Part shown: piece after piece, positions 1 to 14,240 of the stretch | Layout of the letters: each line of letters begins with the position of its first letter | Numbering within the stretch: position 1 is the stretch's first letter | Translations under genes and position numbers: made by a program | DNA from: a virus | Taxonomy: Duplodnaviria; Heunggongvirae; Uroviricota; Caudoviricetes | Virus record (IMG/VR): IMGVR_UViG_3300028486_000080 | Span: 80,199-144,198 of that record | Reading direction: 5' to 3' (one strand) | Length of the DNA: 64,000 nucleotides | Notes under the pieces: model-generated | Databases searched by the model: none | Seen by the model: only the letters and a program-made list of their open reading frames with translations | Told to the model about the DNA's origin: nothing

Positions 1-232
1 TGTAAGTATCGCCTTGGGGAAACATCCCCAGGATAAGATCACCGTTAGCGAGGCGCAGCCATACCCATTGCGATCTCCCATCGGGACTCGTTGGGTCCGC
101 ATTGACGACATTCCTAACCGACTCGGCTGATGCCGGGTGCACATAGGCGAGAGTCGCGCGGGCGATAGATGCGCTGCCATCCTCCGAGTAAACCTCGTCA
201 ACGATGGCATGCGGCTGAATGAAACTCATGGA

Positions 233-532
233 TCAGTCTCCCTGCTCTTCACGATAGCAGCCGATACCGGCAGTCTTCAATGCACCAACCACTGCCGTGG
301 CACGAGCTAGCGCGTTGCCATCGCAGTTGTCATAGCCGACATACAGAACGTTGGTTGCGCCCTGATGCCCCTTGCGCTGAAAAATCTTGCCCAGAGACTT
401 GGCAGCCTTCTCCACAAGCTTGGCTTGCGCCTTGTCAGTTATCGACACGTAGACACGGCAACATCCGATGCCGCGCTCAGGATACACTGGGGCATTGAAA
501 GCGTCAGCCAGTGTGCGGGTCAGATCAGTCAT
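233..532 (-). CDS. hypothetical early protein (start placed at conserved RBS element)
   Basis: ORF 233..574 trimmed to the ATG 8 nt downstream of the AAGGAG/CAGGAG box in the conserved early element. Confidence 0.5.
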   Translation of the reverse strand: MTDLTRTLADAFNAPVYPERGIGCCRVYVSITDKAQAKLVEKAAKSLGKIFQRKGHQGATNVLYVGYDNCDGNALARATAVVGALKTAGIGCYREEQGD

Positions 533-601
533 TGTTCGACTCCTGTTGTTGATCGACTTCAGGCACCCTAACACAGAGGTATTACCAAACCGTTAAAAGA
601 C
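533..601 (-). promoter_or_regulatory. conserved early promoter/5'UTR/RBS element, copy 1
   Basis: minus-strand reading CTTTTAACGGTTTGGTAATACCTCTGTGTTAGGGTGCCTGAAGTCGATCAACAACAGGAGTCGAACAATG; shared with 5 other copies. Confidence 0.6.
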
Positions 602-889
602 TCCTTCCTCCTGCATTTCTAGCGCTTCCTTTTCCCCGTCTTCATCGTAAGACACGCGCGACTGGTCCAATCCGTGGCGCTCAGCCATTTCATAAGCCTC
701 AGCTTCAGCCCAGGTGCGCAGAGTCTTGACCGGAACAGCCCCCGGCATATCCGGCGCAATGTAAGTCTGCGAGCAAGCGCGTGAATTGCCCGCGCTATAC
801 TCTTCTACCGGCTGACTCTCGGCATCGTATGCCGTCACCGCGTAACCGTATGGCGTCGCCCAATACTGAATGTAATACGCCGCACTCAT
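593..889 (-). CDS. hypothetical acidic protein
   Basis: 98 aa ORF co-oriented within the early minus-strand block; no motif recognised. Confidence 0.35.
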   Translation of the reverse strand: MSAAYYIQYWATPYGYAVTAYDAESQPVEEYSAGNSRACSQTYIAPDMPGAVPVKTLRTWAEAEAYEMAERHGLDQSRVSYDEDGEKEALEMQEEGVF

Positions 890-1533
890 GCGATTTTCCC
901 TTCCTCGCTAAATTCATATTCGTTGCAGCGGATATTATCATCGACGTATTCCGCCGAATATCGGTAAGCACTTTCTTTCTCAAGCTGGCGATAAATCCAG
1001 CGCATGAAATCGCGAAGCGCTTCAGTGATTGCCAAGGCACCGGCAGTAAGGTCACGCGTGCCGTAGTCGTCACCGTCCGTCACCTCGATATCGGTGCAAT
1101 ACTCATGGTAGTAATGCCCGGAGTGCTTTACGCGAGCCTCCAGCTTGTAGAAATAGGGACGCTGCGCAGCCTGCAACGCATCGGCAATGGCGTGCAGCTT
1201 TTCGTCCTGAGGCGCGTAGGCACGGATAGCCTTTGGGGCGCCCTTGACGTAGCGATAGCGTCCCGAAAAGCAAGCGCCGTCACCTTGGCAAGAAAAGCCG
1301 GTGAAGTAGATGGCAGATTTGTAGCGCGTGGCACCGCCCATAGTCTGATAGGAGTCTTGATCAAACTCGATACCGAAAATCTTGGCGATGGACTCGATGT
1401 CATCGCCCATGCAATCAAGTAGGTCATCGTCCTGCGAAGCTTCACGATACCAGTCACGCGCGCGTTCCTTGGCGCGATCCGACAACTCGTCAAACTTGAA
1501 AAGCGTGCGCTCGATCACTTCAGTGCGGGGCAT
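886..1533 (-). CDS. conserved hypothetical phage/plasmid protein
   Basis: 215 aa ORF; start set by conserved RBS element (cat at 1531-1533); Cys/Gly-rich FSCQGDGACFSGRY segment; family not recognised with confidence. Confidence 0.55.
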   Translation of the reverse strand: MPRTEVIERTLFKFDELSDRAKERARDWYREASQDDDLLDCMGDDIESIAKIFGIEFDQDSYQTMGGATRYKSAIYFTGFSCQGDGACFSGRYRYVKGAPKAIRAYAPQDEKLHAIADALQAAQRPYFYKLEARVKHSGHYYHEYCTDIEVTDGDDYGTRDLTAGALAITEALRDFMRWIYRQLEKESAYRYSAEYVDDNIRCNEYEFSEEGKIA

Positions 1534-1598
1534 GTTCGACTCCTTTGTTCTCTCGACTTCAGGCACCCTAGCACAAAGGTACTAACAGACCGTTAAAG
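1534..1598 (-). promoter_or_regulatory. conserved early promoter/5'UTR/RBS element, copy 2
   Basis: CTTTAACGGTCTGTTAGTACCTTTGTGCTAGGGTGCCTGAAGTCGAGAGAACAAAGGAGTCGAACATG on the minus strand. Confidence 0.6.
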
Positions 1599-1901
1599 CC
1601 TCTCCATCAAATCATCATCGCCTTGCACGATCACCACGTCTCCCACGAGCACATCGCTCACCATGTGCCCGCCACCAGTCGCCCATGCGAGCGTTGCGAC
1701 ACGATTGATTGGAAGCCCGTTAAGTTTCCCCTCTTCATTACAAAACGCGACGCATCCCTTGTCACCGAAGTTCTCGAATAGCGGCACCAATTCAATGTAG
1801 CCGCCGACGATCTCTTGCAACTCTTCGAGCGTCGGTGCCTTAGTCAGCAGACGCGTCTCGGCAGAGCCGTCAGCACGAATGACTGTCAATGTTCCGTTCA
1901 T
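1593..1901 (-). CDS. DUF3846-like protein (paralog of 4387..4767)
   Basis: 102 aa; EEGKLNGLPINRVATLAW ... GDVVIVQGDDD pattern resembles DUF3846; shares the GLP.N..AT motif with ORF 4387..4767. Confidence 0.45.
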   Translation of the reverse strand: MNGTLTVIRADGSAETRLLTKAPTLEELQEIVGGYIELVPLFENFGDKGCVAFCNEEGKLNGLPINRVATLAWATGGGHMVSDVLVGDVVIVQGDDDLMERL

Positions 1902-2205
1902 TCGAATACCACCTCCACTTCACCACACCATGCACGCTTAGCCGTGCGCGTATCGAATAGACGCCACGCGTGCTTGCCCGAGTCGTAGACTGACAGCATG
2001 TAGGGCGGAAGCTCATAGTCGCGCGGCGTGTGGATAGCCTCAACCGCCTTAGCCGGGAGTCGCGAGGCTACCGACCAGAGGCGCTTGCCTTTCTTTGTCT
2101 CGTTCTCAAGCCCGACGAATTTGCCGTTAGCCTTTGCCAGCATTTCCTCGATCACCGTCTTGGCTTGCGCACGCGGCAGCTTGACCTTGTTTACCGTGAC
2201 CATGT
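1898..2205 (-). CDS. hypothetical early protein
   Basis: ORF 1898..2239 trimmed to ATG following the conserved RBS element (cat 2203-2205). Confidence 0.5.
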
Positions 2206-2268
2206 TCGACTCCCGTTGTGCTCCTACTTCAGGCACCATAGCATATACTCCTTAACAAGCGATTAACG
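2206..2268 (-). promoter_or_regulatory. conserved early promoter/5'UTR/RBS element, copy 3
   Basis: CGTTAATCGCTTGTTAAGGAGTATATGCTATGGTGCCTGAAGTAGGAGCACAACGGGAGTCGAACATG. Confidence 0.55.
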
Positions 2269-2416
2269 CGCGCGGATATATTTTGGTAAGGTTAAGGAAT
2301 CGTATCGTTTCCATTAAGGTAAACGTATGCCCAAACAAAATCGGGCGACACCCAGAGGATGCCGCCCGACTGTGCTACCGGCGAGGGGAGTCGAAGCCTC
2401 TAGCCAGCGCAACCTT

Positions 2417-2806
2417 TTACGTAGGGATGCCCCAATGATCGTTGGCGAACGAGTTGGTGCGTCCCGACTTGAGCTTGAGTGCCAGTGTGAACCCGCGAGG
2501 GTCACCACCACACCGGACCACTTCGGCGCCGTAGGTCTTGGCGATCTCCGAAGCCTTTGCACGTGCCGACTCAAGTTGCTTGTCGGCATGCGCTTGATCG
2601 TTATCCGTCCACTGCGGAACGCTACGCTTCAACTGATGATCATAGCGCTCGATACCGTTGCACTCGCTTTCCGTAATGCGCTGCACCTTGGAAGCGATGG
2701 AAAGCAGTTTCTTCACATCATTCGCAATCTGGAGCGGAGCGGCGACCTTACCCTCCAGTGCCAAGACTGCGGCAAGCTCCAAGCGACTTTCCATACTGGC
2801 GACCAT
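2417..2806 (-). CDS. hypothetical early protein
   Basis: 129 aa ORF; start codon directly follows a conserved early element copy (gcgactccg...). Confidence 0.5.
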   Translation of the reverse strand: MVASMESRLELAAVLALEGKVAAPLQIANDVKKLLSIASKVQRITESECNGIERYDHQLKRSVPQWTDNDQAHADKQLESARAKASEIAKTYGAEVVRCGGDPRGFTLALKLKSGRTNSFANDHWGIPT

Positions 2807-2870
2807 TTGTGCGACTCCGTTTGTTTCGATTTACAGAGACTAGCACAGAGGTACTAACAAATCGTTAAAG
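2807..2870 (-). promoter_or_regulatory. conserved early promoter/5'UTR/RBS element, copy 4
   Basis: CTTTAACGATTTGTTAGTACCTCTGTGCTAGTCTCTGTAAATCGAAACAAACGGAGTCGCACAAATG. Confidence 0.55.
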
Positions 2871-3092
2871 CTCTGCCAGCTTGCGAGAAATTTCTTGGGC
2901 GCTTAGCTCATTGCTCGCTGCTTTCTTCTGATGCACTTGCACCAGCCGCGCGGCGTGCGGCGCATCCGAGCGCTGCCAGAATTTGCTCATGGCGCGATGG
3001 AAGCGTGCCGTGTAATCGTGCGCTGTGCGGCGAGTCTTGAGCGTCACAGCGTGCGGAATCTTGTCGTGGCGGTCAGCATCTTGTGAAGGCAT
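2865..3092 (-). CDS. hypothetical small protein
   Basis: 75 aa ORF in frame-consistent early block. Confidence 0.3.
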   Translation of the reverse strand: MPSQDADRHDKIPHAVTLKTRRTAHDYTARFHRAMSKFWQRSDAPHAARLVQVHQKKAASNELSAQEISRKLAEL

Positions 3093-3121
3093 TTATCTCT
3101 CTCCTAGGGTTTGAAAAGGTC

Positions 3122-3331
3122 TCACCAGACCAGGGGGCACTTAGGCTCACCCGGAAGCATAAGCGTCACCTCTTTGGGTTTGGGGACGACAGGGCGAGGC
3201 GCCGCGGCGTGCTGCCGGTTGCCAGAATTTGTCTGCCCGTTCGCCCATTTCTTGATCTTGATCGTCTGAGAAGGCGTGCCGATCACCGAAGCTGGTGCCC
3301 AGAGCGGACCTTGTGCCATGCGTGCCATCAT
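3122..3331 (-). CDS. hypothetical small protein
   Basis: 69 aa ORF with GAGG-like RBS upstream. Confidence 0.3.
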   Translation of the reverse strand: MMARMAQGPLWAPASVIGTPSQTIKIKKWANGQTNSGNRQHAAAPRPVVPKPKEVTLMLPGEPKCPLVW

Positions 3332-3424
3332 TTACCTCAATGAAAGGTGAAGAAGTACACATAAAAGCAAACGCCCCGGCGCTATGCAAGCACCGAGGCG
3401 TTAAGTGGTGAACGGCGTATTAGC

Positions 3425-3988
3425 TTAAGCCGTGAAGTAAAGCTGCAACGGGTAGCTCGGCACGTTTTGGAGCGACTTGGTAGGGCGCAGCCCACCCTTG
3501 CGCTCGATTGCTACCAGAGCGGCACCACGTGACGGGGCACCAGTGCCCTCTACCTGCACCTTGCCATTGTGCACACGCGCGGGATACCAGCGGCGCTCCC
3601 CGTCCTTGATTGATCCCTTTCGGGGGTGCACCTTAGTTACGACGAAATACTCCCCGTGAAGGTGCGAGGCGACGCGCGCATCGTCAGTAGCGCAGTAGCG
3701 GATGATTGCCGCTACATCGTCAGGGACATTGGATGGCGCCTTAGGATGTGCGATCACCTCAGCATCCGGCACCTTAGCGATGGCGGCGCTCAGTGTGGGA
3801 TAATCACTCTTGTAGATGCGAACAGCGCCCTTTGCCTTAGGATCGAGTCTTGCCACATAGAACCGGTTAGCCTTACTATAGGCGAATAGCCCCTTGGCAT
3901 TGGGGCGCGTCACCATCGAGTCGGCGTGTCCGTTGTTCACAAACGATGTGAGAACAGCGCTCGGGTCTTTGATTGTGTTACGCGGCAT
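3425..3988 (-). CDS. hypothetical protein
   Basis: 187 aa ORF; no recognisable motif. Confidence 0.45.
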   Translation of the reverse strand: MPRNTIKDPSAVLTSFVNNGHADSMVTRPNAKGLFAYSKANRFYVARLDPKAKGAVRIYKSDYPTLSAAIAKVPDAEVIAHPKAPSNVPDDVAAIIRYCATDDARVASHLHGEYFVVTKVHPRKGSIKDGERRWYPARVHNGKVQVEGTGAPSRGAALVAIERKGGLRPTKSLQNVPSYPLQLYFTA

Positions 3989-4386
3989 TCGTTGAGTCTC
4001 CTGCTATGGTAAGGTTACGTGTCGCTAGTTCCTTTTCAGAAAACGGCGGCGGTAACCTTAGGTTCCTATACGATCAAGAATTTTTTCGTCTTGTTACGAA
4101 CGTGAATATAACACAGAGGTCTTAACAAAGTGTTAACACGATAGCGTGACCTACCATAATTTTTGGTAGGGTTACCTGATAATCAATCATTAGGGTTAAC
4201 AAGAAGACGGCTAACGATAGGTTAACCATATAACCCATCGTTAGAAGGCGCTTTGCCCTACACACACAAATTGCCGCCCATCCCAGGTGTAGACCAGCAC
4301 CCGGTTTAAGCCATATTCCGCGGTCACCGCCGCGATCTCTTGCTCAGGCATACAGGCGAACGCCCGCATGATTGTCAGGAAGGGAC

Positions 4387-4767
4387 TCAGAACCACACCC
4401 GACGCATAAAGAGCACCGCAGTCCCCGCAATGAAGTTGAGCATTTCCGGGTCCGCCACCGGGGGCGCCGAACTTCGCCCGGCAAGGTTAGCCGCGCGATA
4501 GATGGCAGTCGCGGTCTCATTGCGCGGCAGCCCGTCCAGCAGTCCAGTCTCATCCACAAACATATCGAGCGCGCGTCTGTTAAAAAGCACGCTCACATGT
4601 TCCAAACGCTTGCCGTCAAGATGCGGCTCGATAATGGTCCGTAGCAGATCGTAACCCGGCTCTCGTGGTAGCTCTCGCACCTCGACCGCAGACTCTTCAA
4701 ACGTCTGTCCTGGCTTGATGATGTGGTAGGTTGTCAGGATAACCGGCTTTGTCTTTAGCTCTGCCAT
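4387..4767 (-). CDS. DUF3846-like protein
   Basis: 126 aa; VSVLFNRRALDMFVDETGLLDGLPRNETATAIYR pattern typical of DUF3846. Confidence 0.45.
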   Translation of the reverse strand: MAELKTKPVILTTYHIIKPGQTFEESAVEVRELPREPGYDLLRTIIEPHLDGKRLEHVSVLFNRRALDMFVDETGLLDGLPRNETATAIYRAANLAGRSSAPPVADPEMLNFIAGTAVLFMRRVWF

Positions 4768-5012
4768 TAGATCGACACCCTCGCAGGTCGTTGGAACGAT
4801 ACAGATTTGCAGCCAGCCTTTTCGCGTATCTTTTCAGCGACGTGTACCATCGTCGATCCTTGATCGAAGACAAACGCCTCAGCACCACATATCCACATAG
4901 GGCGTCCGTCAAACATCCATATTTCGCCTATGACTAGATAGTCATCCGCTACCACGTGGTATCGCCCTTGTCCAGGCTCGTATCCTCGCAAATCTTTCTT
5001 CAACTCAGCCAT
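4767..5012 (-). CDS. hypothetical protein
   Basis: 81 aa ORF, ATGA overlap with downstream gene. Confidence 0.4.
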   Translation of the reverse strand: MAELKKDLRGYEPGQGRYHVVADDYLVIGEIWMFDGRPMWICGAEAFVFDQGSTMVHVAEKIREKAGCKSVSFQRPARVSI

Positions 5013-5019
5013 CGGCTAC

Positions 5020-6369
5020 TCACTTTGAAAGATAGATGTCTGAAATTTTCAGGGCGATGTCGCGAAACGCTTGACGCAATTGTGCGTCATCCGCGGCGTC
5101 ATACTTCATCGTGGCATCGGTAGCGCATTGAGATAGGGTCTCTTTCGCGGTGTAGTCGTCAAGCTTGAACCCTATCGTAAAAACATCAATGCCGTCTGCT
5201 TTCATCCGCTTGCAAATCTCCCGTGCTTGAGTCGCGGATGAACCGTTAGCCGCCGAGCACTTCCCCTTCAGATCGTCGGTGCGGTTTGATGTCTTATCCG
5301 CCGCACCGCTGGAGCAATGTTGGATATTATACTCTCCGTCTGTCATGAGCACCGCCACTTTGCGCACGCTCTTTTTCGACGGGTCATAAGCTTGAGGGCG
5401 CGCGTTGCTCGGGAAGCGCGCCGCCCAGTTAGGAGACAGCGCATAGTATGCCCATGCCGTGCCTATATGACCAGCCGTAGAGCCCGACGCCTTCAGATTG
5501 TCGATAGCATCCATGATCATTTGCTTGTCAGAAGACAGCGGAATGAAAACCGAAGCAGGTTCACACTTACCATCATAGGTGTATGGGCGCATTGGGTAGC
5601 CGTTCGCAGATGATGGCGGCGCATCGGTGTATGCTTGCGAGCCCGTGCGCTCCACTACGCAATAGCTTGTGCGCCGCCAATCCCGCGTCTTGCCGTTGTT
5701 CTGTTGGATGGACTTGGTAGCCGCCGCAGTCGGAGCACCGCTCATGATAGTAGAGAAGCGAGAACCCAGGTTGACCGACTCCGAGAACGGGATGATAGCG
5801 GCTTTTGAAGTCACATCGGATTGATTTTCATCGACTACGACGTTGATCAAATCCTTGGCGGCATCTTTCATTGCATCAAGCTTCGAGCACGGCGAGCACA
5901 TAGAGCCCGTTACGTCCAGCATGAGCGCCACCTCAAGATTGCCGCCAGTCTTGCCGCCCTTGCGCACTTGCGAGCGAGCGGCAACGTTGATGTCCAACTT
6001 TTCCACATGCACGATAGGTAGGAACATGGTTTTGACGATAGAGTGCTCGACTCCATCTAGCACCTTGGCTCCGTCCTGCTCAACCACTGTGAACTTGGCA
6101 GATGGCTCGCCTTGCACCCAGGGACGATTCTTCACGTTGGCGAGGTAAATCTGGCGTGCAGCTTCCGTAGCCGTCGCGAAGCTATCCGGGTTGACTTGAA
6201 GTGACCGCGCACCAGCGAGCACAGCAGCGTCAATCGCGCTTTGCGTTTGGCTTTTAGCGTGATACCAGCGCCCAACGTCAAGTGCGCCGCCAACGCACGC
6301 CACCATTATAGGCAACGAAAAGGCGAACATGACTGCAACGTTACCCCGGTCATCACGAAAAAAGCGCAT
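5020..6369 (-). CDS. TadE/TadG-like pseudopilin N-terminus fused to von Willebrand factor A domain
   Basis: N-term MRFFRDDRGNVAVMFAFSLPIMVACVGGALDVGRWYHAKSQTQSAIDAAVLAGARSL matches the TadE-like (Flp pilus assembly) domain; vWA signature ALMLDVTGSM plus MIDAS-like residues; embedded in the phage early operon. Confidence 0.65.
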   Translation of the reverse strand: MRFFRDDRGNVAVMFAFSLPIMVACVGGALDVGRWYHAKSQTQSAIDAAVLAGARSLQVNPDSFATATEAARQIYLANVKNRPWVQGEPSAKFTVVEQDGAKVLDGVEHSIVKTMFLPIVHVEKLDINVAARSQVRKGGKTGGNLEVALMLDVTGSMCSPCSKLDAMKDAAKDLINVVVDENQSDVTSKAAIIPFSESVNLGSRFSTIMSGAPTAAATKSIQQNNGKTRDWRRTSYCVVERTGSQAYTDAPPSSANGYPMRPYTYDGKCEPASVFIPLSSDKQMIMDAIDNLKASGSTAGHIGTAWAYYALSPNWAARFPSNARPQAYDPSKKSVRKVAVLMTDGEYNIQHCSSGAADKTSNRTDDLKGKCSAANGSSATQAREICKRMKADGIDVFTIGFKLDDYTAKETLSQCATDATMKYDAADDAQLRQAFRDIALKISDIYLSK

Positions 6370-6379
6370 CGACTCCTCC

Positions 6380-6568
6380 CTAGTTGATCGTAAAAATTAC
6401 CACACCCTTTTCGAGTAACGTTGCGACAGCAGATTCCACCGCCACCACATCACACTCAGGGGCATCCTTGGGCAGGTACACTGTTAGGGTGCGCCGCCCA
6501 ACGGTCCCGCCGACCACCGGTTGCTCACCGATGATTCGACGGGAAACCATGAGGGGATGATCGCTCAC
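6380..6568 (-). CDS. hypothetical small protein
   Basis: 62 aa ORF overlapping the upstream gene by 4 nt. Confidence 0.35.
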   Translation of the reverse strand: MSDHPLMVSRRIIGEQPVVGGTVGRRTLTVYLPKDAPECDVVAVESAVATLLEKGVVIFTIN

Positions 6569-6894
6569 CGCTGATAGTCCTGAATGCGGGTTGTCCGCAT
6601 ACCGGGGCGCCCATGCTTATCGAGAAGTGTAGACCAGTTGCGGAATTCTTCATCGCTGATGGACCAGCGAGTGAGCGCTTCCTGCAACGTGATCAGTCCA
6701 CCACGAACGGCGAGCACCACTTCAGCCTTGCGGCGGGTCACCCAGCGCGTGGTATTGGATGGCGGCAGATCAGCAGCGCTAAGAGGCTCGCCCTCCGGTC
6801 CAACTACATAGCGGGGCGCCGCTTTGCGTCCAGGCACAGCAAGTGCCTTTGCTTTTGGCTTGGTCATATAATCCTTTCCATGCGTTGACTTCAC
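6565..6894 (-). CDS. DUF1153-like helix-turn-helix protein
   Basis: RWVTRRKAEVVLAVRGGLITLQEALTRWSISDEEFRNW...GLR pattern typical of DUF1153 (alphaproteobacterial HTH family). Confidence 0.5.
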   Translation of the reverse strand: MKSTHGKDYMTKPKAKALAVPGRKAAPRYVVGPEGEPLSAADLPPSNTTRWVTRRKAEVVLAVRGGLITLQEALTRWSISDEEFRNWSTLLDKHGRPGMRTTRIQDYQR

Positions 6895-6932
6895 TATGAA
6901 AAGGAGGCTAGCACAAAATAGTTAAAGGAAAG

Positions 6933-7286
6933 TTAACGACGCCCCCCATGAATAAGAAATAGCCCCCCAGACCCTAAAGGCTTGGCACGCACAGGAGGCA
7001 CTAACTTAACCTCTTGCTTGCGCGTGTTCTCGTCCGACTTCAGGCGATTGAATAGCTTGCAATAGGCGCTTGCCTCAGCTTCGAGCCTAGGCAAATCGGC
7101 AGGGGTATCTGCGACCCATATTTCCAACACTTGCGCGGGGCGAAACGGGCGGGGATGGATAAGCTGGTAGCCCCAACATTTTCCCTTAACCAAAAACCGG
7201 CGCACCTCAGCAGGAAACATTGCCACCTCACATATGGAAAAGACCCTAGGCGTATACACGCCTAGGGCTAGTTTGGCACTCCCCAT
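6933..7286 (-). CDS. hypothetical protein
   Basis: 117 aa ORF. Confidence 0.4.
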   Translation of the reverse strand: MGSAKLALGVYTPRVFSICEVAMFPAEVRRFLVKGKCWGYQLIHPRPFRPAQVLEIWVADTPADLPRLEAEASAYCKLFNRLKSDENTRKQEVKLVPPVRAKPLGSGGLFLIHGGRR

Positions 7287-7306
7287 GCTAAAGAGTGCGG
7301 ATTTGC

Positions 7307-7546
7307 TTAAGCTTCTGCGACGCCTTCGCCTCTCCGGTCCACAGTTAGCTCATGATTAGTCGGGAACCCGCAAGCGCAGTTGTCGAAGTAAACAACCGTG
7401 CACTCAGGAGTCTCTTGCACAACTTCTGCCACAGCTTGAAATTCGCACTCGTATTCGATGTGGTCATGGTTAGGGTCCGCATACGGATCACCCTCCAGGT
7501 CCACGGCGTCACCGGGCTTCAAGTCTTTTACTTTGATCTTCATCAC
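7307..7546 (-). CDS. hypothetical small acidic protein
   Basis: 79 aa ORF, overlaps the upstream gene by 4 nt. Confidence 0.4.
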   Translation of the reverse strand: MMKIKVKDLKPGDAVDLEGDPYADPNHDHIEYECEFQAVAEVVQETPECTVVYFDNCACGFPTNHELTVDRRGEGVAEA

Positions 7547-7911
7547 GCCACCTTAGAAGACTGCCAACGCGCACGGCGCATGCGCTCAACTTCAGCCTTA
7601 ATAGTCGCACGATGCTGTGGCGTCTGACGCTTGTAGACTTTGAGATTGTAACCGTAAGGGATGCCCTCAAGCTCCGCCTTCAGGTCCGCATATTCTTCAG
7701 GCGTGGCAGGGCGCGTAATCTTGAGCACCCATCCCATATCGCAGGCGCCGTGCTGCCCCACGTGCTCATAGCACGTCAGTTTGTGCCCATATTCATCCCA
7801 AGGCTCGGCAATGAAAACTGCGGTAACGCCATCGCCATACTTTTTGGGATAGCGTGCGACGCGAAACATAACCGGCGTCACGTGCTCATCTTTCTGGAAA
7901 GCTTCCTGCAT
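7543..7911 (-). CDS. hypothetical early protein
   Basis: 122 aa ORF; start codon directly follows a conserved early element copy (cat 7909-7911). Confidence 0.5.
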   Translation of the reverse strand: MQEAFQKDEHVTPVMFRVARYPKKYGDGVTAVFIAEPWDEYGHKLTCYEHVGQHGACDMGWVLKITRPATPEEYADLKAELEGIPYGYNLKVYKRQTPQHRATIKAEVERMRRARWQSSKVA

Positions 7912-7972
7912 GTTCGACTCCTTTTTGTCTCGACTTCAAGCACCCTAGCACAAAGGTACTAACAAATCGTTA
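7912..7972 (-). promoter_or_regulatory. conserved early promoter/5'UTR/RBS element, copy 5
   Basis: ...GATTTGTTAGTACCTTTGTGCTAGGGTGCTTGAAGTCGAGACAAAAAGGAGTCGAACATG; overlaps the stop of the upstream gene. Confidence 0.55.
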
Positions 7973-8145
7973 CTCAGCTTCGATTGCCTTAATGCGTTCA
8001 CGGAGGCATTTTGCGCCTTCGTGCTTGCCCTCTTTCTCTAGCAGTTGCGCGGCTTGCTCGTATAGCTTGACAGCCTTATGGGGGATGCCCCGACGATAGT
8101 ATTCGTCGGCTTCCATTTGCAGCAGGATAGAAGGGGCGTGCATTG
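7970..8145 (-). CDS. small TPR-like helical protein
   Basis: ORF 7970..8227 trimmed to the ATG after the conserved RBS (cat 8143-8145); helical repeat-like YYRRGIPHKAVKLYEQAAQLLEKEGKHEGA. Confidence 0.4.
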
Positions 8146-8200
8146 TTCGACTCCTTGGTTGATAAAGGGTGTCAGAAGAGTGACACTCAGCCAGGGCACT
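8146..8200 (-). promoter_or_regulatory. partial copy (RBS/5'UTR part) of conserved early element
   Basis: ...CCAAGGAGTCGAACAATG on the minus strand. Confidence 0.4.
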
Positions 8201-8454
8201 TGTTTGCGGCTCGTCATGCTGCACCAACGAGGCTACGGCTACGCTATGAACCTAGCTTTCATCAGTCGTGGCGCCTTACGCATCGAAAGAATTCTCGATC
8301 CCGCTTTCCCGTTCGCTACCCCTAAGGGTCCAAATTAGGCGCTAGCCCTATGGATCAACTCGCTACTAGGTATGTGCCGCCGAGCTTCGCGTCTCGCTTT
8401 TCCCGTGCCTTTCGCCTTGTGGCTTCACTCTTCTGACTACACAAAACTAGCATG

Positions 8455-8600
8455 GGCGGGTTAACAAACTCTTAACGCGCCGGGCGCAGTGTCATTAACC
8501 TTAACGTTTAACCAGTTTACGACCTGTTAACCCTAATGCACGTTAACTGCGCCTGTTAACTTGATGTTAACCTGGGATGTGTTACGTTCAGGGCAATCGC
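8455..8600. repeat. cluster of six GTTAAC/TTAAC(C/G) motifs
   Basis: gttaacaaactcttaacg...cattaaccttaacgtttaacc...ctgttaaccctaatgcacgttaactgcgcctgttaacttgatgttaacc. Confidence 0.5.
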
Positions 8601-8810
8601 GAGAAAACTCGCATTTGAATTAAACCATGCTCGCACGTCCTTAACAGGGCGTGAACGGGCATTTTTGCGTTAATGGTAAACGAAACGTTAATGAACGTTT
8701 CAAAGTGAGACGGCGCGCGCCCGTTAACCAAACGGATTGCGCTCGCGAGTTCGCGCGAGTGCTAGAAAAAGCTCACGAGCCTAAAAATTTCGGATCGGGA
8801 TTTGAAAACC

Positions 8811-9383
8811 TCACGAGCCGAAAACCTCACGAGCCCAAAAAATTGACTGCACCATCGACATGCCGTGTCCCCGTGGGACAAATACTATGTTGGTTTTGTT
8901 GCTTTTTCTGAGGTTGTCTTCAGCGAGCATGGGTTGCAGGTTCCAGGGTACATGCAGTCCAGAGCGATCTTCACCCTTCAACGGTTCGATGTGATCTACG
9001 TGCCATTTCTGCCCGGTCGATAATTCTAGCTTACGTGCTAGCGCGAATACATCCTCGATAGCCCGCAGCATTTCGGGGTTGTCGAGCACCCATTTAGGTG
9101 TTGCATTGAGCAACATTGCTCGCGTTTTTGCTCCTTGAGCCCGCGTCTTGTGGCGATTGTTCTCAGCCCACTGCCGCGCGATCTCCCGCAGGCGATCATA
9201 GTTCTTATCACGGTATTTTGCATCATATGCCGCACGACGGTGGGGATGCTTCTTGCGGAATGCTATCGCATAGGCGGTATGACACACCTTGCACTTGGAC
9301 AGGCGTTTGTCTCGCGTATCGGGGCGATGGTGGAAGTCAGTGAGCGGCTTAATCTCGCCGCATGCTTTGCATTGCTTTGTCAT
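8811..9383 (-). CDS. HNH endonuclease
   Basis: N-terminal Cys4 zinc ribbon (CKACGE...CKVCH) and C-terminal HVDHIEPL...NLQPMLAEDNLRKSNK HNH motif. Confidence 0.75.
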   Translation of the reverse strand: MTKQCKACGEIKPLTDFHHRPDTRDKRLSKCKVCHTAYAIAFRKKHPHRRAAYDAKYRDKNYDRLREIARQWAENNRHKTRAQGAKTRAMLLNATPKWVLDNPEMLRAIEDVFALARKLELSTGQKWHVDHIEPLKGEDRSGLHVPWNLQPMLAEDNLRKSNKTNIVFVPRGHGMSMVQSIFWAREVFGS

Positions 9384-9429
9384 GGCGCAGGAGACTACAG
9401 ATATTAACCTTACTATGTCAAGCGCGTTA

Positions 9430-9600
9430 TCGTTAACTAGGCGTGAGTCGTAAGGCGAAAGGCGCTCGTCATTTTATGGGAGGATGCCCTATTTTCGTCG
9501 GGCGATACCTCCCCCTTCATTTTATTTGATGATGGGTCCACCCATTTTTCTGGGGGAAATGCCTCCCCCCTAGAGTCAATCTTAAGATGGGTCCGTTGCG
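9430..9600. repeat. iteron-like degenerate direct repeats in a 400-bp non-coding region
   Basis: four units of the form (C/T)ATTTT-N5-9-G-rich-CCCC(C) e.g. cattttatgggaggatgccc / tattttcgtcgggcgatacctccccc / cattttatttgatgatgggtccaccc / atttttctgggggaaatgcctcccccc. Confidence 0.4.
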
Positions 9601-9790
9601 TTTATTTCGCACGGTGCACTTATTGCGCTTTAACTCAATGAGGATGTGATGACTATGGGCAACAGTGGAGTGTGACACCTACATATTTATCTATGTGACA
9701 TGCGCGCAACGTCGGACTTAAATATGGTAGTTAAACTATAGGGTTCGCTTAACCTTAATTTATGAGTTCACGTGACACCTACCTAGAGTC

Positions 9791-10300
9791 ATGATTCGGT
9801 GGTTCCATAGATATAAGGAACATACGATGCCCCAGATCATGGCTAGAGTCACCCGGTTCGCCTCTGACTTCGGTAAGGGGCTGTGGAAGTTCACCCTTTC
9901 GCTGCCGCGTCAGGTGCTCGTCTTCATGGTCTACGCGGCTGTCGCCCTCCCGCTCGGCGGCGCCATCATGGATACGGTGCTCGTACCGATGCCCCTCTTG
10001 CATGAGGGTATCATCCCCCTAACGCTAGGCAACTTCTTTGTGTTCGCCTCGGTCGTGGTGCTCTTCATTGAGATCATGAAGTCTACGAACTACACTGATG
10101 CCGTCGTGCGCGACCACAACTATTCGATGTTGCTGCTATTGCTGTGTCTCGTGCTGCTCGCAGCCGTGCCCGCGTTCGGCACCATCACGTTCCTCGACTT
10201 CACCGTGCTTCTGCTCGCAGACGTGCTGCTCGGCTACAACGTCACGCAGGCTGTCGCCGGTCGCTCGCTTCAACTCGGCAACCTAACAGGTGGTAACTAA
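9791..10300 (+). CDS. polytopic membrane protein
   Basis: 169 aa with 4 predicted hydrophobic helices; ATGA overlap with the next membrane-protein gene. Confidence 0.5.
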   Translation: MIRWFHRYKEHTMPQIMARVTRFASDFGKGLWKFTLSLPRQVLVFMVYAAVALPLGGAIMDTVLVPMPLLHEGIIPLTLGNFFVFASVVVLFIEIMKSTNYTDAVVRDHNYSMLLLLLCLVLLAAVPAFGTITFLDFTVLLLADVLLGYNVTQAVAGRSLQLGNLTGGN

Positions 10301-10908
10301 TGGAAGCTATCAGCCCCGGCTTCATCGTCGGCTTCGGTATGGGATTTTGGGCTTGGGTAGTCCTCGCTATTTGGACGGTTTCCATAATCACGCTCGTGGC
10401 GTGGGAGCGCCCCGGTTCCGCTGCGCTGACAGTCGTCATCACCCTCGCTATCTTACAGTTTGTCGGCGGAAAAGACGTGTTGGGCTACATCCTCGACAAC
10501 CCCATGACCATCCTCAAGTGGGGCGCATACTACGTCGCGGTTGGCGTTGCTTACTCGTTTGTACGCTGGGATCAGGTTGGACGCGAGTGGCGTAAAAACT
10601 ACGAGTCAGCCGAGCCAGGAAGCGGCACTCAAAAATACTATTGGGACAACCAACCAGACGCGGCGCAGAGCAAGAGCCGTATTGTTTCGTGGACCATGTT
10701 TTGGCCATGGAGCATGTTCTGGTGGCTGCTCTCGGATGTCATCAAGAATGCTTTCGAATGGCTCTATTCAAAGCTGTCTGGCGTCTACACGGCTATAACT
10801 CGGCGCCACCTTGCGGGCGTGGTACCTCCTCCAACCCCCTTTCAAAAGGGTAATGCTGCGCAGAATTTGAATGCTAGAGAATCCTACTCGTCAAGCGACG
10901 GTGGCTAG
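10300..10908 (+). CDS. polytopic membrane protein (Trp-rich)
   Basis: 202 aa; 3-4 hydrophobic helices, WTMFWPWSMFWW aromatic belt. Confidence 0.5.
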   Translation: MEAISPGFIVGFGMGFWAWVVLAIWTVSIITLVAWERPGSAALTVVITLAILQFVGGKDVLGYILDNPMTILKWGAYYVAVGVAYSFVRWDQVGREWRKNYESAEPGSGTQKYYWDNQPDAAQSKSRIVSWTMFWPWSMFWWLLSDVIKNAFEWLYSKLSGVYTAITRRHLAGVVPPPTPFQKGNAAQNLNARESYSSSDGG

Positions 10909-11000
10909 TGATCAAGACGCGAGGTAGCCCGCGTTAACGGTATGTTAATCTTTTACATGTAGACCAAGGGAGAGTATGTAGCACGAGCCGGGGAGTTTTG

Positions 11001-11969
11001 ATGATTGTAAGCGCTGACACGATCCGTAACTTCCGTATGAAAGTTGATGTCGCCCTTGAGTCTCACCACTCATGGGTGAACATCTTTCTTATGACGTTGG
11101 TTATCGCCAACGTGTCCGCGTTCGCCCTCGCGACCGAGCCTGCTGTCCACGACCGCTACTTCACGGTGATCCTTTGGTTTGAGCTTGTCTCTCTCGCGAT
11201 CTTCTCCGTCGAGTATGTGGCGCGCATCTGGGCGCATCCTCAGCCTCGCTGGCGCTTTGCGCTGGAGCCGATGCAGATCATCGACTTCCTGTCTATCGTC
11301 CCGGCAGCTATCGCCCTCACGGTTGGGCATATCGATCTGGGCATCCTCTTCCTGCTACGCCTGATTCGTTTCATCAAGATCGTGCGCTATTCGCAGGGCG
11401 TCGGCTTGCTTTGGGCAGTGATCAAGCAGGAGCGTTCGGCGCTGTTCTCCTCTACGCTGATCATGTTCGGGCTTGCCGTTGTGACGGCGACGGTGATGTA
11501 TTTTCTTGAGCGCGACGCGCAGCCCGACAAGTTCGGATCGGTAGTGCAGGCGATGTGGTGGAGCTTCACCACGCTTGGTACTATTGGCTACGGCGATGTC
11601 GTGCCAGTGACGGTCGCAGGCAAGATCGCTACATGTGTGATGATGATAATCGGCGTCGGCACTTTTGCCATCCCCTTCGCGCTGATCGCGTCGGGCTTCA
11701 CAGCGCAGTTCTCTTTCACGCCCTCGCCGGTCACGGTACCTATCCCGGTTTCCGTCCCCGCAAACACGCTTGTCAACGTGCGCTATGCTGATCACGTTGC
11801 CGAGTTCGCACGACCAAACGGAGAGTCAGACGGCATCAACCTGATCCACCTCGAAGACCCGGTGATCGCGCGTGTGATCACTGATCTGTTGAACGGATCG
11901 GCAGCCGTGAATTTCAACGAGACCACGAAGACGTGGATCATAACGGAGGAACCGAATGCGATTGTTTAA
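11001..11969 (+). CDS. voltage-gated potassium channel homologue (6TM Kv-type)
   Basis: S4 voltage sensor LLRLIRFIKIVRY (basic residue every third position); pore helix plus selectivity filter WWSFTTLGTIGYGDVVP; S1-S6 hydrophobic segments; GGGAG RBS 5 nt upstream of ATG 11001. Confidence 0.85.
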   Translation: MIVSADTIRNFRMKVDVALESHHSWVNIFLMTLVIANVSAFALATEPAVHDRYFTVILWFELVSLAIFSVEYVARIWAHPQPRWRFALEPMQIIDFLSIVPAAIALTVGHIDLGILFLLRLIRFIKIVRYSQGVGLLWAVIKQERSALFSSTLIMFGLAVVTATVMYFLERDAQPDKFGSVVQAMWWSFTTLGTIGYGDVVPVTVAGKIATCVMMIIGVGTFAIPFALIASGFTAQFSFTPSPVTVPIPVSVPANTLVNVRYADHVAEFARPNGESDGINLIHLEDPVIARVITDLLNGSAAVNFNETTKTWIITEEPNAIV

Positions 11970-12219
11970 TGATGAAGTGCCTGAGGATATCCAGGCGAAG
12001 TATCTCTCGCTCGCAGAGACGGCGCTGGAGCGGATTAAGCACAACTTGCCAATCCCTAGCGACGAGCTTGACGTGTTGCGAGCTATCGTGCGTATATCGG
12101 ATAGTTCTCGTGGGGCTTCCCCCCTCATTGAGAACCTTCCACGGTGCCATACGAGCGGGCAGTTACTCTGTCCGTGTTGCGGTGAGCACCTAGGAACGGA
12201 AGCCCCGCCGCTGCAATAG
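11956..12219 (+). CDS. hypothetical small protein
   Basis: 87 aa ORF overlapping the channel gene end by 14 nt; C-terminal CPCCGEH cysteine cluster. Confidence 0.3.
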   Translation: MRLFNDEVPEDIQAKYLSLAETALERIKHNLPIPSDELDVLRAIVRISDSSRGASPLIENLPRCHTSGQLLCPCCGEHLGTEAPPLQ

Positions 12220-12282
12220 GTTTCAGCGCCCCAATTGCGCGCAGGCTTCCTCAGGCGCCCCTGATGCTTACCCCCCGAGGCA

Positions 12283-12849
12283 TCAGGGGCGCCGCTTCTT
12301 TACAGTGTAGACGGTCGCCACGCGAACCCGGCGATTAGGTGCCTGTTCTATCGGCACCCATTTCTCGATATGAGAACAGCAATAGTAGCCCCCGAGCACG
12401 ACCGCCCAATGTCCATCCGGCTCACGCTTGGTCCCGCATAGCTCAATCACATAGGCGACCCCAGCCTTTCGTTTGTAGGTCTTCAGCCACTTTGCCATTG
12501 TGAGGTGGTCTAGTAGCTCGCCATGGCACATGTAGAACAGGCGCATGGCGTAGCCGAGTTTGTGTAGAGCAAACTCCAGGTCTTCAGCCCGAGTACCGGT
12601 AACCACACTTTTCCGGTTCTTTCTATGGGCACGGATCAACTCACGAATAAGTTCCGTATCGGCACCAGTTATGGCGGACACGACCGCAGGTCCGCACCAT
12701 AGGAGGGTATTAAGGTTATGATTGATGGCGTAGGGCTTAACTGGATGCCCTTTAACCAACTCCGTCATTTCGATCTCAGCAAAGATCAACCCCGCAAGGC
12801 GGACCTTGGACGCAGCGCGATACTCAGCTAGGTATTGTGATCGCGCCAT
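12283..12849 (-). CDS. hypothetical protein
   Basis: 188 aa ORF; no recognised motif. Confidence 0.45.
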   Translation of the reverse strand: MARSQYLAEYRAASKVRLAGLIFAEIEMTELVKGHPVKPYAINHNLNTLLWCGPAVVSAITGADTELIRELIRAHRKNRKSVVTGTRAEDLEFALHKLGYAMRLFYMCHGELLDHLTMAKWLKTYKRKAGVAYVIELCGTKREPDGHWAVVLGGYYCCSHIEKWVPIEQAPNRRVRVATVYTVKKRRP

Positions 12850-12861
12850 TAACGTTAACCG

Positions 12862-12890
12862 TTGACAAGGGTGAAATGGTTTGCTAAGTT
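12862..12890 (+). promoter_or_regulatory. sigma70-type promoter TTGACA-N17-TAAGTT
   Basis: exact TTGACA, 17-bp spacer, TAAGTT; 38 bp upstream of ATG 12928. Confidence 0.5.
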
Positions 12891-12927
12891 AAGGATACAG
12901 CTTAACCTTAACAGAATAGTGACACAT

Positions 12928-13458
12928 ATGCAACCCCTCATCGAACCTACCAAGTTTACGATGGCTGATGGCTCACCAGTCGATCTCCCCGACAACGGTG
13001 CCTTTCACATGCTGGGTATCGACACCCTGACTGGAAAGGTGGACATGGTGCGCGACCTGCGGGAAGGGGCAGCTAATTCTTCGTGGCTGAAGGCTGCCGT
13101 ATCCTTGGTTCTTGAGGATCATGCGTCTCAATATTCTGAGACGCTGTTCGCGATGGCGGCACAAACAGAAGTCAACCGCAAGATCAACAAGCGCCCATTC
13201 ATTCTCAACAATGATCTGGCGATGCAGCTTATCTCTCGCTGCGCCTCACGTCTGGAGCAAGCGTATGTCCGCATGTACGGCTGGGATGGCTGTGGACGCT
13301 TTGAGGTGCTGCTACCCTATACGGTATCTGCTGTCTTCAAGAATGCATCAGGCGAAGAAGAACTCGACCTGTCTAAGTGTCGCCCCTACGTCAACGGAAC
13401 ATTTTACGTAGCACTAGGAGCGATGGGATGGGATGCGGTTGCAATTCCAGGGGCGTAA
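12928..13458 (+). CDS. hypothetical protein (start revised to ATG 12928)
   Basis: ORF track starts at TTG 12862, which is actually the -35 of a TTGACA-N17-TAAGTT promoter; first ATG at 12928 preceded by the gtgacacat motif. Confidence 0.45.
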   Translation: MQPLIEPTKFTMADGSPVDLPDNGAFHMLGIDTLTGKVDMVRDLREGAANSSWLKAAVSLVLEDHASQYSETLFAMAAQTEVNRKINKRPFILNNDLAMQLISRCASRLEQAYVRMYGWDGCGRFEVLLPYTVSAVFKNASGEEELDLSKCRPYVNGTFYVALGAMGWDAVAIPGA

Positions 13459-13476
13459 GGCGAAAGGCGCCCGTCA

Positions 13477-14067
13477 ATGATCGTGCTGGCAATCGACACC
13501 GACTCCAGAGGCGCTATGGCGATGCTCGACACGAGGCGCCTGATGCTCGACGTGTTCGCGACACCGACCGAGAAGATCAAGATGGCGAGCGGGAAGTCGC
13601 AGCTACAGATGAACTTGCCTGTCCTAGCTGCGATTTTGCACGATCTGACCTCGCATGCCGATGTGGCATGGCTGGAAAAGCAATGGGCTCGCCCAAACCA
13701 GGGCGTAACCAGCACCTTCGGATTCGGCAAGACCTACGGGGAATATCGGGGGATAGTGACGTTCGGGTTTCTCGAAAAAGAGTGCAGTCCGCTACCGCAA
13801 CTTCAAGAGCGCGTACACCTAGTTTCGGGCGCTGAGTGGAAGGGCAAGATGCGCCTGACGAAAGATAAGAAAGAAGCACGAGCGCTGGCGACGCAACTGT
13901 TTCCTGAGTGCGCTAGCGCGTGGAAGAGTAAGGATTCCAGCGCCGAAGCAAGCCTTTTGGCATTCTACGGGGCATCTATGCTTGGTGAAAAAATCCCTTT
14001 CGGAGCTAAGATCAAGCCGAGCATTGTTCGTTACACCGCGCACGCAGAAAGTCTTATTAAGCGTTGA
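13477..14067 (+). CDS. possible RuvC-like Holliday junction resolvase
   Basis: N-terminal MIVLAIDTDSRGAMAML resembles the RuvC catalytic-Asp motif; C-terminal AEASLLAFYG resembles the RuvC DAADALA region; weak. Confidence 0.35.
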   Translation: MIVLAIDTDSRGAMAMLDTRRLMLDVFATPTEKIKMASGKSQLQMNLPVLAAILHDLTSHADVAWLEKQWARPNQGVTSTFGFGKTYGEYRGIVTFGFLEKECSPLPQLQERVHLVSGAEWKGKMRLTKDKKEARALATQLFPECASAWKSKDSSAEASLLAFYGASMLGEKIPFGAKIKPSIVRYTAHAESLIKR

Positions 14068-14120
14068 CATCAGTCTACAGTAAGCTTATATATTTACCTT
14101 ACCGGTAAAGGAGAAATGAC

Positions 14121-14240
14121 ATGTCGAAATGGTTCGATGGCATCAAGGCGTGGCTCAAGCCAAAGACTGATGCGATTGGTATCCCCTGGTGGGTACCGTT
14201 GGTGGTTGTGGCAGTTCTTGTCCTAGCCGTCCTCTTCTGA
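14121..14240 (+). CDS. small membrane peptide (39 aa)
   Basis: ATG with AAGGAGA RBS; single hydrophobic helix; followed by GC hairpin 14249..14271. Confidence 0.3.
   Translation: MSKWFDGIKAWLKPKTDAIGIPWWVPLVVVAVLVLAVLF

Follow-up and report, generated by a model that had tools for sequence, protein, structure and literature searches.

Introduction

The sequence TTAA-N7-TTAA is the binding motif of CtrA, an OmpR-family master regulator of cell cycle and motility in the Alphaproteobacteria. Activating full CtrA sites in Caulobacter start near -35, for example at -39 in ctrA P2 (PMC4287350), and most CtrA-activated promoters have one site at -35, with one-mismatch sites also being functional (PMC11264516). 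Clusters of CtrA sites are known from phages of Alphaproteobacteria, phiCbK-like ones among them (Mascolo et al. 2022, PMC9437464). Phosphorylated CtrA (CtrA~P) shifts probes from upstream of phiCbK gp005 and gp018, which have one site each; mutation of the half-sites abolishes the shift, and lacZ fusions of gp005 and gp018 drop >29-fold and 5-fold, respectively, in a ctrA-ts strain (PMC9437464). Here we analyzed a 64,000-nucleotide stretch of a tailed phage (IMG/VR record IMGVR_UViG_3300028486_000080, positions 80,199 to 144,198; hereafter the window), in which a unit of approximately 65 bp is repeated ahead of small minus-strand genes. This unit is a promoter-plus-ribosome-site cassette, and its promoter half has the layout of the CtrA-activated promoters of phiCbK. 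An element of this kind has already been described and tested in phiCbK-like phages and is here found in a rare, previously unseen lineage, in which two further leads look new: a phage-encoded SciP, and a conserved leader RNA that is apparently structured.

Anatomy of the Repeated Cassette

A repeat search identified five full minus-strand copies of a 65-nt family (533-597, 1533-1597, 2203-2267, 2805-2869, and 7910-7974), which are 60-83% identical to the reference copy without gaps and whose boxes start at 596, 1596, 2266, 2868, and 7973. Each unit combines three modules: a palindromic TTAAC-N5-GTTAA box, an extended -10 element (TGnTAnnnT), and a leader ending in GGAGTCGAACA-ATG, which contains the ribosome-binding site (RBS). 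Three additional copies, with boxes starting at 4136, 6936, and 8475 on the same strand, are promoter-only. The preliminary description of this region counted six copies of the whole unit, of which five are full; the sixth, at the gene that starts at 8143 (gene A), has the RBS module only (8144-8154), and its promoter lies 332 nt upstream of that site (box 8461-8475), behind a long leader. Partial copies noted near 4100 and 6895 proved to be real promoter-only copies (boxes 4122-4136 and 6922-6936). Four of the six start codons proposed at that stage stand, and two were off by 2 nt, the true ATGs being the reverse complements of 2201-2203 and of 8141-8143. For four genes (233..574, 886..1566, 1898..2239, and 7970..8227), the trimmed start is not that of the longest open reading frame (ORF), as had been noted, and the cassette thereby corrects four gene starts. 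The public gene call for 1898-2239 (113 aa) begins at an ATG overlapping the promoter -10; judged by the RBS module, translation would begin at 2203 (101 aa). The promoter at 8475, the cluster of half-sites at 8480-8728, and seven copies to the left of the window are additions to the preliminary description.

Position statistics were obtained from 32 aligned sites of three phages, namely the window phage and the metagenomic phages L062 and L037 described below. Positions T2, A3, A4, T13, and A14 of the box are invariant, and the conservation of C5 (29 of 32) and G11 (27 of 32) defines the palindrome TTAAC-N5-GTTAA, which equals TTAA-N7-TTAA. Nine bases past the box, T24 G25 n T27 A28 n n n T32 form an extended -10, in which the TG is present at 30 of 32 sites and the hexamer has T1 at 31, A2 at 32, and T6 at 31 of them; the earlier assignment of TGCTAGGGT as an extended -10 agrees with this signature. 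The spacing is fixed: 9 nt separate the end of the box from GCTAGGGT, and 11 nt separate it from the TAGGGT hexamer. With a transcription start 7 nt past the hexamer, as we predict, the 5' base of the box would lie at approximately -38, in agreement with the -39 of ctrA P2. In contrast, TTAACG does not qualify as the -35 hexamer that it had been taken for: it is 20 bp from TAGGGT, TTGTTA is 12 bp from it, and a consensus scan of minus-strand positions 1-11000 found no sigma-70 -35/-10 pair at 16-18 bp spacing. Since no -35 hexamer lies at normal spacing, TTAACG is best read as half of an activator site, namely the 5' half of the palindromic box.

The predicted leaders are 24-27 nt long, A/C-rich, and no more structured than shuffled sequences, and they end in AAGGAG-TCGAACA-ATG. 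The leader sequence GCCTGAAGTCGA of the preliminary description is exact in two copies, has one mismatch at 7930-7941 and two at 2223-2234, and is replaced in the copy at 2868. A suggested role of this leader as the binding site of an RNA-binding regulator finds no support, because the leaders are unstructured and their sequence is not kept at orthologous promoters of L062, where the box, the -10, and the RBS module are. Five exact and two one-mismatch occurrences of GGAGTCGAACA are present in the window, all on the minus strand between 533 and 8154, against approximately 1.2 expected by chance, and a count of seven was reached in none of 100 shuffles. The TCGAACA spacer between Shine-Dalgarno and ATG is kept between the window phage and L062. 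The region of this spacer bears a GANTC (CcrM) site, with GAGTC in every intact RBS module, and GANTC is depleted window-wide (184 observed vs 297 expected), the first 4 kb having the most of any 4-kb bin.

Two sub-classes of copies were recognized. All seven copies whose 3' half-site is weakened (TTAG or GTAA) begin at the stop codon that ends the gene before them or overlap it; in 6 of the 7, this stop codon is the TAA of the first half-site, and the seven copies have a near-identical leader and RBS module in common. Examples are cassette 2, where the first TAA of the box is the stop codon of the upstream gene, and cassette 5, where the TAA is the stop codon of gene A (7970-8143). Eight copies have a perfect 3' half-site, and six of these come after a terminator or a long gap; leaders at operon heads are variable. 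Cassette 3 is such an operon head, after the terminator at 2339-2371, as is the promoter at 4136, which follows the terminator at 4211-4244 and whose box starts 148 nt from the ATG. In our own calculation from the 15-copy table, the split into sub-classes is associated with position at a Fisher p of approximately 0.006.

The composite promoter pattern [GT]TAA-N7-[GT]TA[AG]-N9-[GT][CTG]TA has nine matches in the window, compared with 0.15 expected, and eight of the nine are on the minus strand between 596 and 8475. A Logan assembly (SRR14117729) that is 100% identical over window positions 1-10532 made a further 10 kb beyond the left end readable, and this identical public contig (L036) holds seven more copies at its positions 10978-19070. 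The extended sequence therefore has 15 copies in 20 kb, every one on the coding strand and just upstream of a gene, 9 of the 15 lying 62-65 nt from the ATG. No copy occurs in the other ~53 kb of the window, except one plus-strand site at 10934. These results bear out the view of a promoter family in which each member is followed by a short leader with a strong Shine-Dalgarno sequence and points in the direction of the small genes, and also the expectation that the element recurs in other intergenic regions, since the additional copies were found in neighboring ones. The small-gene array left of the window includes DUF932 and DUF3846 proteins, and the array is at least 20 kb long.

Conservation in Other Phages

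A search with the 215-aa cassette-driven protein identified one close relative, the 167.7-kb metagenomic contig L062, which is colinear with the window phage and whose proteins are 33-72% identical to those of that phage in amino-acid sequence. A pattern scan found 12 promoter copies in L062 and two more were found by eye; the promoter is kept upstream of all six orthologous genes examined, including sciP, while the sequence between -10 and RBS differs or changes length at several of these promoters. A lower-G+C metagenomic phage fragment, L037, has no detectable protein similarity to the window and carries five promoter copies, with a head layout as in the window (direct repeats, a TTAAC cluster, and a first promoter with a long leader). 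ACCT at positions 17-20 counted from the box is conserved in the window lineage and L037, not in phiCbK.

The lineage appears sparsely in sequence collections. No close DNA relative of the 9-kb region was found in 50,697 phage records, and the 70-nt cassette had none in distant mode. A search of 5.8 billion protein clusters with another early protein returned no phages other than L062 and the window phage itself, which leaves the lineage with two members in that collection. In IMG/VR, a SciP-based search returned no relatives and two promoter patterns had no match. The pattern GGTGCCTGAAGTCGA gave 34 single matches there, none with more than one copy, and these were read as chance. More distant homologues of the 215-aa gene (L068 and L069) belong to different elements, which have no cassette.

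The Promoter Half as a Probable CtrA-Dependent Promoter

The phiCbK terminal repeat reads TTAAcggtttgTTAAcatatcggcGCCAGGGT upstream of gp005 and TTAAcggtttgTTAAcccctggccCTCTAGGGT upstream of gp018. As in the window, both promoters follow the arrangement TTAAcggtttgTTAA-N9/10-GCCAGGGT or TCTAGGGT, and the window's TTAAcggtttgTTAGtacctttgtGCTAGGGT matches this layout, including the N7 spacer and the spacing between box and -10, which in phiCbK is (G/T)C(T/C)AGGGT at 9-10 nt from the box. This identity of layout with promoters that CtrA activates argues that the promoter half of the cassette is a CtrA-activated promoter of the phiCbK type. The exact motif TTAA-N7-TTAA occurs six times in the window compared with 0.49 expected (12-fold), all within 2252-10948. 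Among the 15 sites of the window phage, eight have both half-sites perfect, six have one mismatch, and one has two. All of them are found within ~20 kb, ahead of genes and on the strand that codes for these, and so cluster in the manner described for CtrA sites. Because the box matches the CtrA consensus, the promoters are better regarded as dependent on a host regulator than as the phage-specific early type proposed in the preliminary description.

Taken together, these observations make it likely that the units are promoters for the host RNA polymerase that depend on the host's CtrA and are joined to a standard translation-start module. In the mechanism that we propose, a dimer of phosphorylated CtrA would bind the palindromic box TTAAC-N5-GTTAA in place of a -35 element and would recruit the housekeeping sigma-70-type holoenzyme to the extended -10 (TGcTAGGGT) exactly 9 nt downstream. 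Transcription would then start ~7 nt past the -10 hexamer, giving the leader of 24-27 nt, and internal copies would re-initiate transcription along the 20-kb small-gene array, such that expression of the gene block would be gated by the CtrA state of the host, that is, by its cell-cycle or motility state.

Several points weigh against this interpretation. Start site, CtrA binding, and expression are all predictions for the window phage, and so is its host. The 3' half-site of the seven internal cassettes is degenerate (TTAG or GTAA), so that CtrA may bind them with low affinity, and, because an extended -10 is workable without a -35 element, part of the transcription may be independent of CtrA. 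The ACCT spacer positions 17-20 are left unexplained by CtrA. CtrA represses, and does not activate, in Brevundimonas phage Delta (PMC9437464), so that the motif by itself does not tell activation from repression. Lastly, the search for a phage-encoded regulator or sigma factor covered only ~74 kb of a roughly 165-kb genome. In that search, CtrA, GcrA, and the sigma factor of Sphingobium phage Lacusarx served as tblastn queries and gave a single weak match (E ~1), ORF 8811-9383, which PHROGs assigns to an HNH/endonuclease VII type protein and which was rejected as a regulator.

Several of these points would also suit constitutive host sigma-70 promoters of the extended -10 type, in which the TTAAC palindromes are operators of a dimeric repressor or activator encoded by the phage itself. 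The strongly conserved extended -10 might need no activator, the lineage also conserves spacer positions that lie outside the CtrA half-sites, most early genes belong to no known family and could include an unrecognized DNA-binding protein, and ~90 kb of the genome lies outside the sequence searched. We nevertheless regard such operators as unlikely, because phiCbK promoters with this box, its N7 spacer, and an equal distance to the -10 are bound and activated by host CtrA without any phage protein, because L037 has the promoter yet no detectable protein homology to the window, and because SciP, which the phage encodes, has CtrA as its sole known partner.

The gene content of L062 raises the question of whether the cassette primarily serves gene movement. 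Differences in gene content and order between the window and L062 fall at cassette-led genes; for example, the cassette with its 122-aa gene is found elsewhere in L062, and a gene that lacks an orthologue tends to have a cassette in front of it. From this relocation and the cassette-led unmatched genes, the promoter-gene unit looks like the unit of rearrangement, and genes in these genomes appear to be gained, lost, and moved as such units. A cassette that is mainly for recombination or gene mobility, or only a translation or RNA-processing signal, with incidental promoter features, would fit these differences and also the RBS module at 8144-8154, which has no adjacent promoter. It is nonetheless very improbable: the box and -10 are the best conserved parts across three phages while the leader varies, the copies at 4136 and 6936 have a promoter and no RBS module, and shuffling of genes is a consequence of the repeats rather than an alternative to promoter function. 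Least probable of all is recognition by a phage-encoded sigma factor or RNA polymerase, which would make the element a middle or late promoter and for which the long (~32 bp), highly conserved motif and the annotated sigma factor gp182 of the related phage Lacusarx could be cited, given that no gp182 homologue is present in the window or L036, that TGnTAnnnT is the signature of housekeeping sigma-70, that the upstream palindrome, unlike a sigma -35 element, also stands alone in clusters, and that the phiCbK equivalents fire in uninfected Caulobacter.

A Phage-Encoded SciP behind a CtrA-Box Promoter

The gene directly behind the promoter at 6936 encodes a member of the CtrA inhibitor family SciP, which scores 115.9 bits against the NCBIfam equivalog NF051866 (cut-off 100) over model positions 6-90 of 90. 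The closest homologues found are from Sphingomonadales (47-56% identity). A tblastn search of 50,697 phage records returned only one SciP homologue, in Erythrobacter phage XM05, where it is annotated as hypothetical; no PHROG family covers phage SciP, and a literature search found no report of a phage-encoded SciP, which appears to be undescribed. In the study of Mascolo et al., SciP figures only as a tested binding motif, and the authors cite homologues of GcrA for phiCbK-like phages and analogues of CcrM for certain Sinorhizobium phages (PMC9437464). Phage XM05 has dense TTAAC/TTAACCAT clusters at 10148-10680 and 16922 in a small-gene region, which are not the window cassette. Capture of the promoter together with a host sciP was considered and rejected, as nothing similar to the phage promoter was seen in the sequences that precede sciP in bacteria.

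L062 keeps sciP, its CtrA-box promoter, and the next large gene, which encodes a TadE/TadG-like protein with a vWA domain. In the window this TadG-like gene is downstream of sciP with no terminator between them. The sciP gene of Caulobacter is itself activated by CtrA, and its product in turn shuts down the promoters that CtrA activates (PMC4287350). As judged from its family membership, the phage SciP would likewise bind CtrA and block transcription, and, being made from a CtrA-box promoter, it would feed back negatively on the phage CtrA promoters and on the CtrA regulon of the host. Phage SciP suggests that the CtrA pathway is manipulated as well as sensed by phages.

The Tad/Flp pilus is the receptor class of phiCbK-like phages, and the TadG-like protein may interfere with this pilus in the host. 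A broader scheme, which we put forward tentatively as a possible though doubtful one, is that both arms of the host's CtrA-SciP circuit were taken over by the phage: its 15 or more CtrA promoters would switch on the small-gene block only in cells with active CtrA, SciP and the TadG-like protein would subsequently shut off these promoters and the regulon, and the structured leader RNA would be a further player. Were this so, the CtrA-active cells would be motile, piliated, or predivisional ones, the shut-off of the regulon would cover pilus and flagellum genes, and the outcome would be a self-limiting pulse of early expression together with a block to superinfection.

The Head Promoter, Its Leader, and the Half-Site Cluster

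Transcripts from the head promoter at 8475 would carry a leader of ~290 nt before gene A. This leader is ~80% identical to L062 3283-3565 (BLASTN core 85% over 148 nt), while the flanking proteins are 33-72% identical, and it has no conserved ORF. Comparison of the window with L062 reveals 3-4 compensatory changes in predicted long-range helices and no broken pair. The evidence for structure comes from this comparison alone, the single-sequence fold being no better than shuffles (z = -0.92). No Rfam match was obtained in 8000-8900 at E <= 1, and none at the gathering threshold. A 21-mer of the leader had no match in IMG/VR, and the leader was found nowhere beyond the window phage and L062; four IMG/VR matches to a 19-mer were coding-like, lacked wider nhmmer similarity, and were dismissed as chance. 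With two sequences known, the ~290-nt leader is a candidate for a new type of structured RNA.

Upstream of the head promoter, half-sites accumulate at 8480-8728, with no -10 at any site of this cluster; the 8-10 kb bin holds 25 half-sites compared with 0-8 in most other bins. Isolated TTAAC half-sites without a -10 point to a DNA-binding protein rather than a sigma factor. Direct repeats analogous to those farther upstream in the window occupy the same position in L062 and L037, and the order from repeats to TTAAC cluster to first promoter is the same. CtrA sites upstream of pilA delay and dampen expression (PMC11264516), and by analogy the similarly placed cluster could tune CtrA control of the head promoter. 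As the cluster adjoins iterons and the conserved leader, a role in replication or packaging is also possible, and cluster and repeats could mark an origin or packaging site.

Phage Context and Probable Host

The window is part of a large tailed phage of siphophage type, for which contigs of 82 kb and 165 kb are on record, the 165-kb one identified by a protein of the phage that it encodes. Its genes include a large terminase (14652-16328), a baseplate hub of the phiJL001-gp84 type, a primase/helicase-like protein, a ribonucleotide reductase, and a nicotinamide adenine dinucleotide (NAD)-salvage pair. On the minus strand, 29 tRNA genes lie between 37923 and 53442, and an alphaproteobacterial two-piece (permuted) transfer-messenger RNA (tmRNA) with tag peptide ANDNSPMVEDFRIAA is located at 50171-50551. 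The terminase is ~30-33% identical to its best matches, of which the single best is from a Microcystis phage, followed by phages of Erythrobacter, Sphingobium (Lacusarx), Citromicrobium, Ruegeria, and Caulobacter (phiCbK-like). The alphaproteobacterial type of the tmRNA and the terminase relatives point to an alphaproteobacterial host, which would presumably have CtrA. The NAD-salvage pair (40416-43125, minus strand) consists of a nicotinamide phosphoribosyltransferase and a cytidylyltransferase-like/NUDIX fusion, and a similar adjacent pair is annotated in Lacusarx (gp168 and gp167). The only plus-strand copy of the box lies upstream of ORF 10998-11969, which encodes an ion-transport (voltage-gated-channel-like) protein (Pfam Ion_trans, E 1.6e-30).

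Table 1. Coordinates of cassettes, promoters, genes, and associated features in the window; -10, hexamer of the extended -10 element.
Feature	Position (strand)	Details
Cassette 1	530..596 (-)	Box TTAAcggtttgGTAA 582-596; -10 TAGGGT 565-570; RBS module 533-543; ATG 532-530
Cassette 1 gene	233-532 (-)	99 aa
Cassette 2	1531..1596 (-)	Box TTAAcggtctgTTAG 1582-1596; -10 1565-1570; RBS module 1533-1543; ATG 1533-1531
Cassette 2 gene	886-1533 (-)	215 aa, phrog_5162
Cassette 3	2201..2266 (-)	Perfect box TTAAtcgcttgTTAA 2252-2266; -10 TATGGT 2235-2240; RBS module 2203-2213; ATG 2203-2201
Cassette 3 gene	1898-2203 (-)	101 aa
Cassette 4	2804..2868 (-)	Box TTAAcgatttgTTAG 2854-2868; -10 TAGTCT 2837-2842; RBS GGAGTCGCACA 2808-2818; ATG 2806-2804
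Cassette 4 gene	2417-2806 (-)	129 aa
Promoter-only copy	4105..4136 (-)	Perfect box TTAAcactttgTTAA 4122-4136; -10 TATATT 4105-4110
Gene behind promoter 4136	3425-3988 (-)	187 aa
TadE/TadG-like N-terminus and vWA domain protein	5020..6369 (-)	449 aa; L062 ortholog 59% identical
CtrA inhibitor SciP (DUF1153)	6565..6867 (-)	100 aa; Pfam PF06627 E 2.4e-35
Promoter-only copy, directly upstream of the SciP gene	6905..6936 (-)	Perfect box TTAActttcctTTAA 6922-6936; -10 TAGCCT 6905-6910
Cassette 5	7909..7973 (-)	Box GTAAcgatttgTTAG 7959-7973; -10 7942-7947; RBS module 7911-7921; ATG 7911-7909
Cassette 5 gene	7543-7911 (-)	122 aa
RBS module only, gene A	8141..8154 (-)	GGAGTCGAACA 8144-8154; ATG 8143-8141
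Gene A	7970-8143 (-)	57 aa
Long conserved leader, promoter 8475 to gene A	8155..8437 (-)	Putative closing helix GUCAGAAG.../...CUUCUGAC
Head promoter of the gene array	8444..8475 (-)	Perfect box TTAAgagtttgTTAA(C) 8461-8475; TG 8451-8452; -10 TAGTTT 8444-8449
Half-site cluster	8480..8728	~14 TTAAC/GTTAA half-sites; full site 8556-8570 and several near-full sites
Three direct repeats	8767..8844	GGCTCGTGAGGTTTT on the minus strand, upstream of the box cluster
Sole plus-strand box copy	10934..10965 (+)	TTAAcggtatgTTAA 10934-10948 with weak -10-like TGTAGACC
Intrinsic terminators	2339-2371, 3370-3402, 4211-4244, 7243-7268 (-)	Divide the array into operons
RBS modules with GAGTC	533-543, 1533-1543, 2203-2213, 7911-7921, 8144-8154 (-)	

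Comparison with Known Systems

Two repeated elements of other phages resemble parts of the cassette. The mobile early promoter/stem-loop cassettes (PeSLs) that Arbiol and co-workers reportedly described in T4-type phages in 2010 are likewise repeated early-promoter cassettes that flank small variable genes, and the differences in gene order at cassette-led genes are a further likeness. In contrast to PeSLs, the leaders here fold no better than shuffles, and the promoter is of a different type that probably depends on a host regulator. The start-associated sequences (SAS) of Cluster K mycobacteriophages, which Pope and co-workers are said to have reported in 2011, compare with GGAGTCGAACA in being a conserved motif of ~11-13 bp that includes the Shine-Dalgarno sequence and stands immediately before many start codons; the two are unrelated in sequence, and the motif of the window, unlike SAS, is nearly always coupled to a promoter 40-50 nt upstream. 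In Lacusarx, a scan of 100 kb on either side of its middle 30 kb found only one exact TTAA-N7-TTAA site.

Among bacterial promoters, the full-motif promoters of Caulobacter crescentus (ctrA P2, fliQ, and ccrM) have a single TTAA-N7-TTAA in place of the -35 or overlapping it, the 5' base of which falls near -35 to -39, and one-mismatch sites are tolerated (PMC4287350, PMC11264516); the same placement is predicted for the window phage, which also has one-mismatch sites. Repression by SciP is expected for these promoters and likewise for those of the phage. Unlike the C. crescentus promoters, the phage sites are repeated at least 15 times with near-identical flanks, and their start sites are predicted ones. 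The phage also resembles the host CtrA-SciP circuit in that sciP stands directly behind a promoter with a consensus CtrA box, as does host sciP of Caulobacter; it differs in that sciP is carried by a virus, in which its targets, whether of phage or host, are putative.

The closest described system is that of phiCbK. Both are large siphophages with tRNA arrays, their terminases are ~32% identical, and in phiCbK copies of the promoter are likewise repeated, with a repeated leader, before many small co-directional genes of unknown function. In addition to the gp005 and gp018 promoters, four more copies of the same layout precede other small genes of phiCbK, three of them with a common leader of their own, and part of the repeated leader recurs at the gp018 promoter. 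Within phiCbK 1-12000, promoter sites at 3980, 5178, 6403, and 8835 form repeated cassettes whose own leader bears a ccgggcaatcccgcccgg hairpin, and a TTAAC cluster lies at ~2000-2080, upstream of gp004. The phiCbK promoters differ from those of the window in being without the TG of the extended -10 and without the ACCT spacer motif, and in having a different repeated leader, which contains a hairpin. In the phiCbK-like cluster, the CtrA region lies in a direct terminal repeat. The comparison extends the experimentally grounded idea that alphaproteobacterial phages read the CtrA state of their hosts, and presents the phiCbK-type CtrA promoter as a conserved modular unit of box, fixed spacer, and -10, which also provides a search pattern for the early regions of related uncultivated phages.

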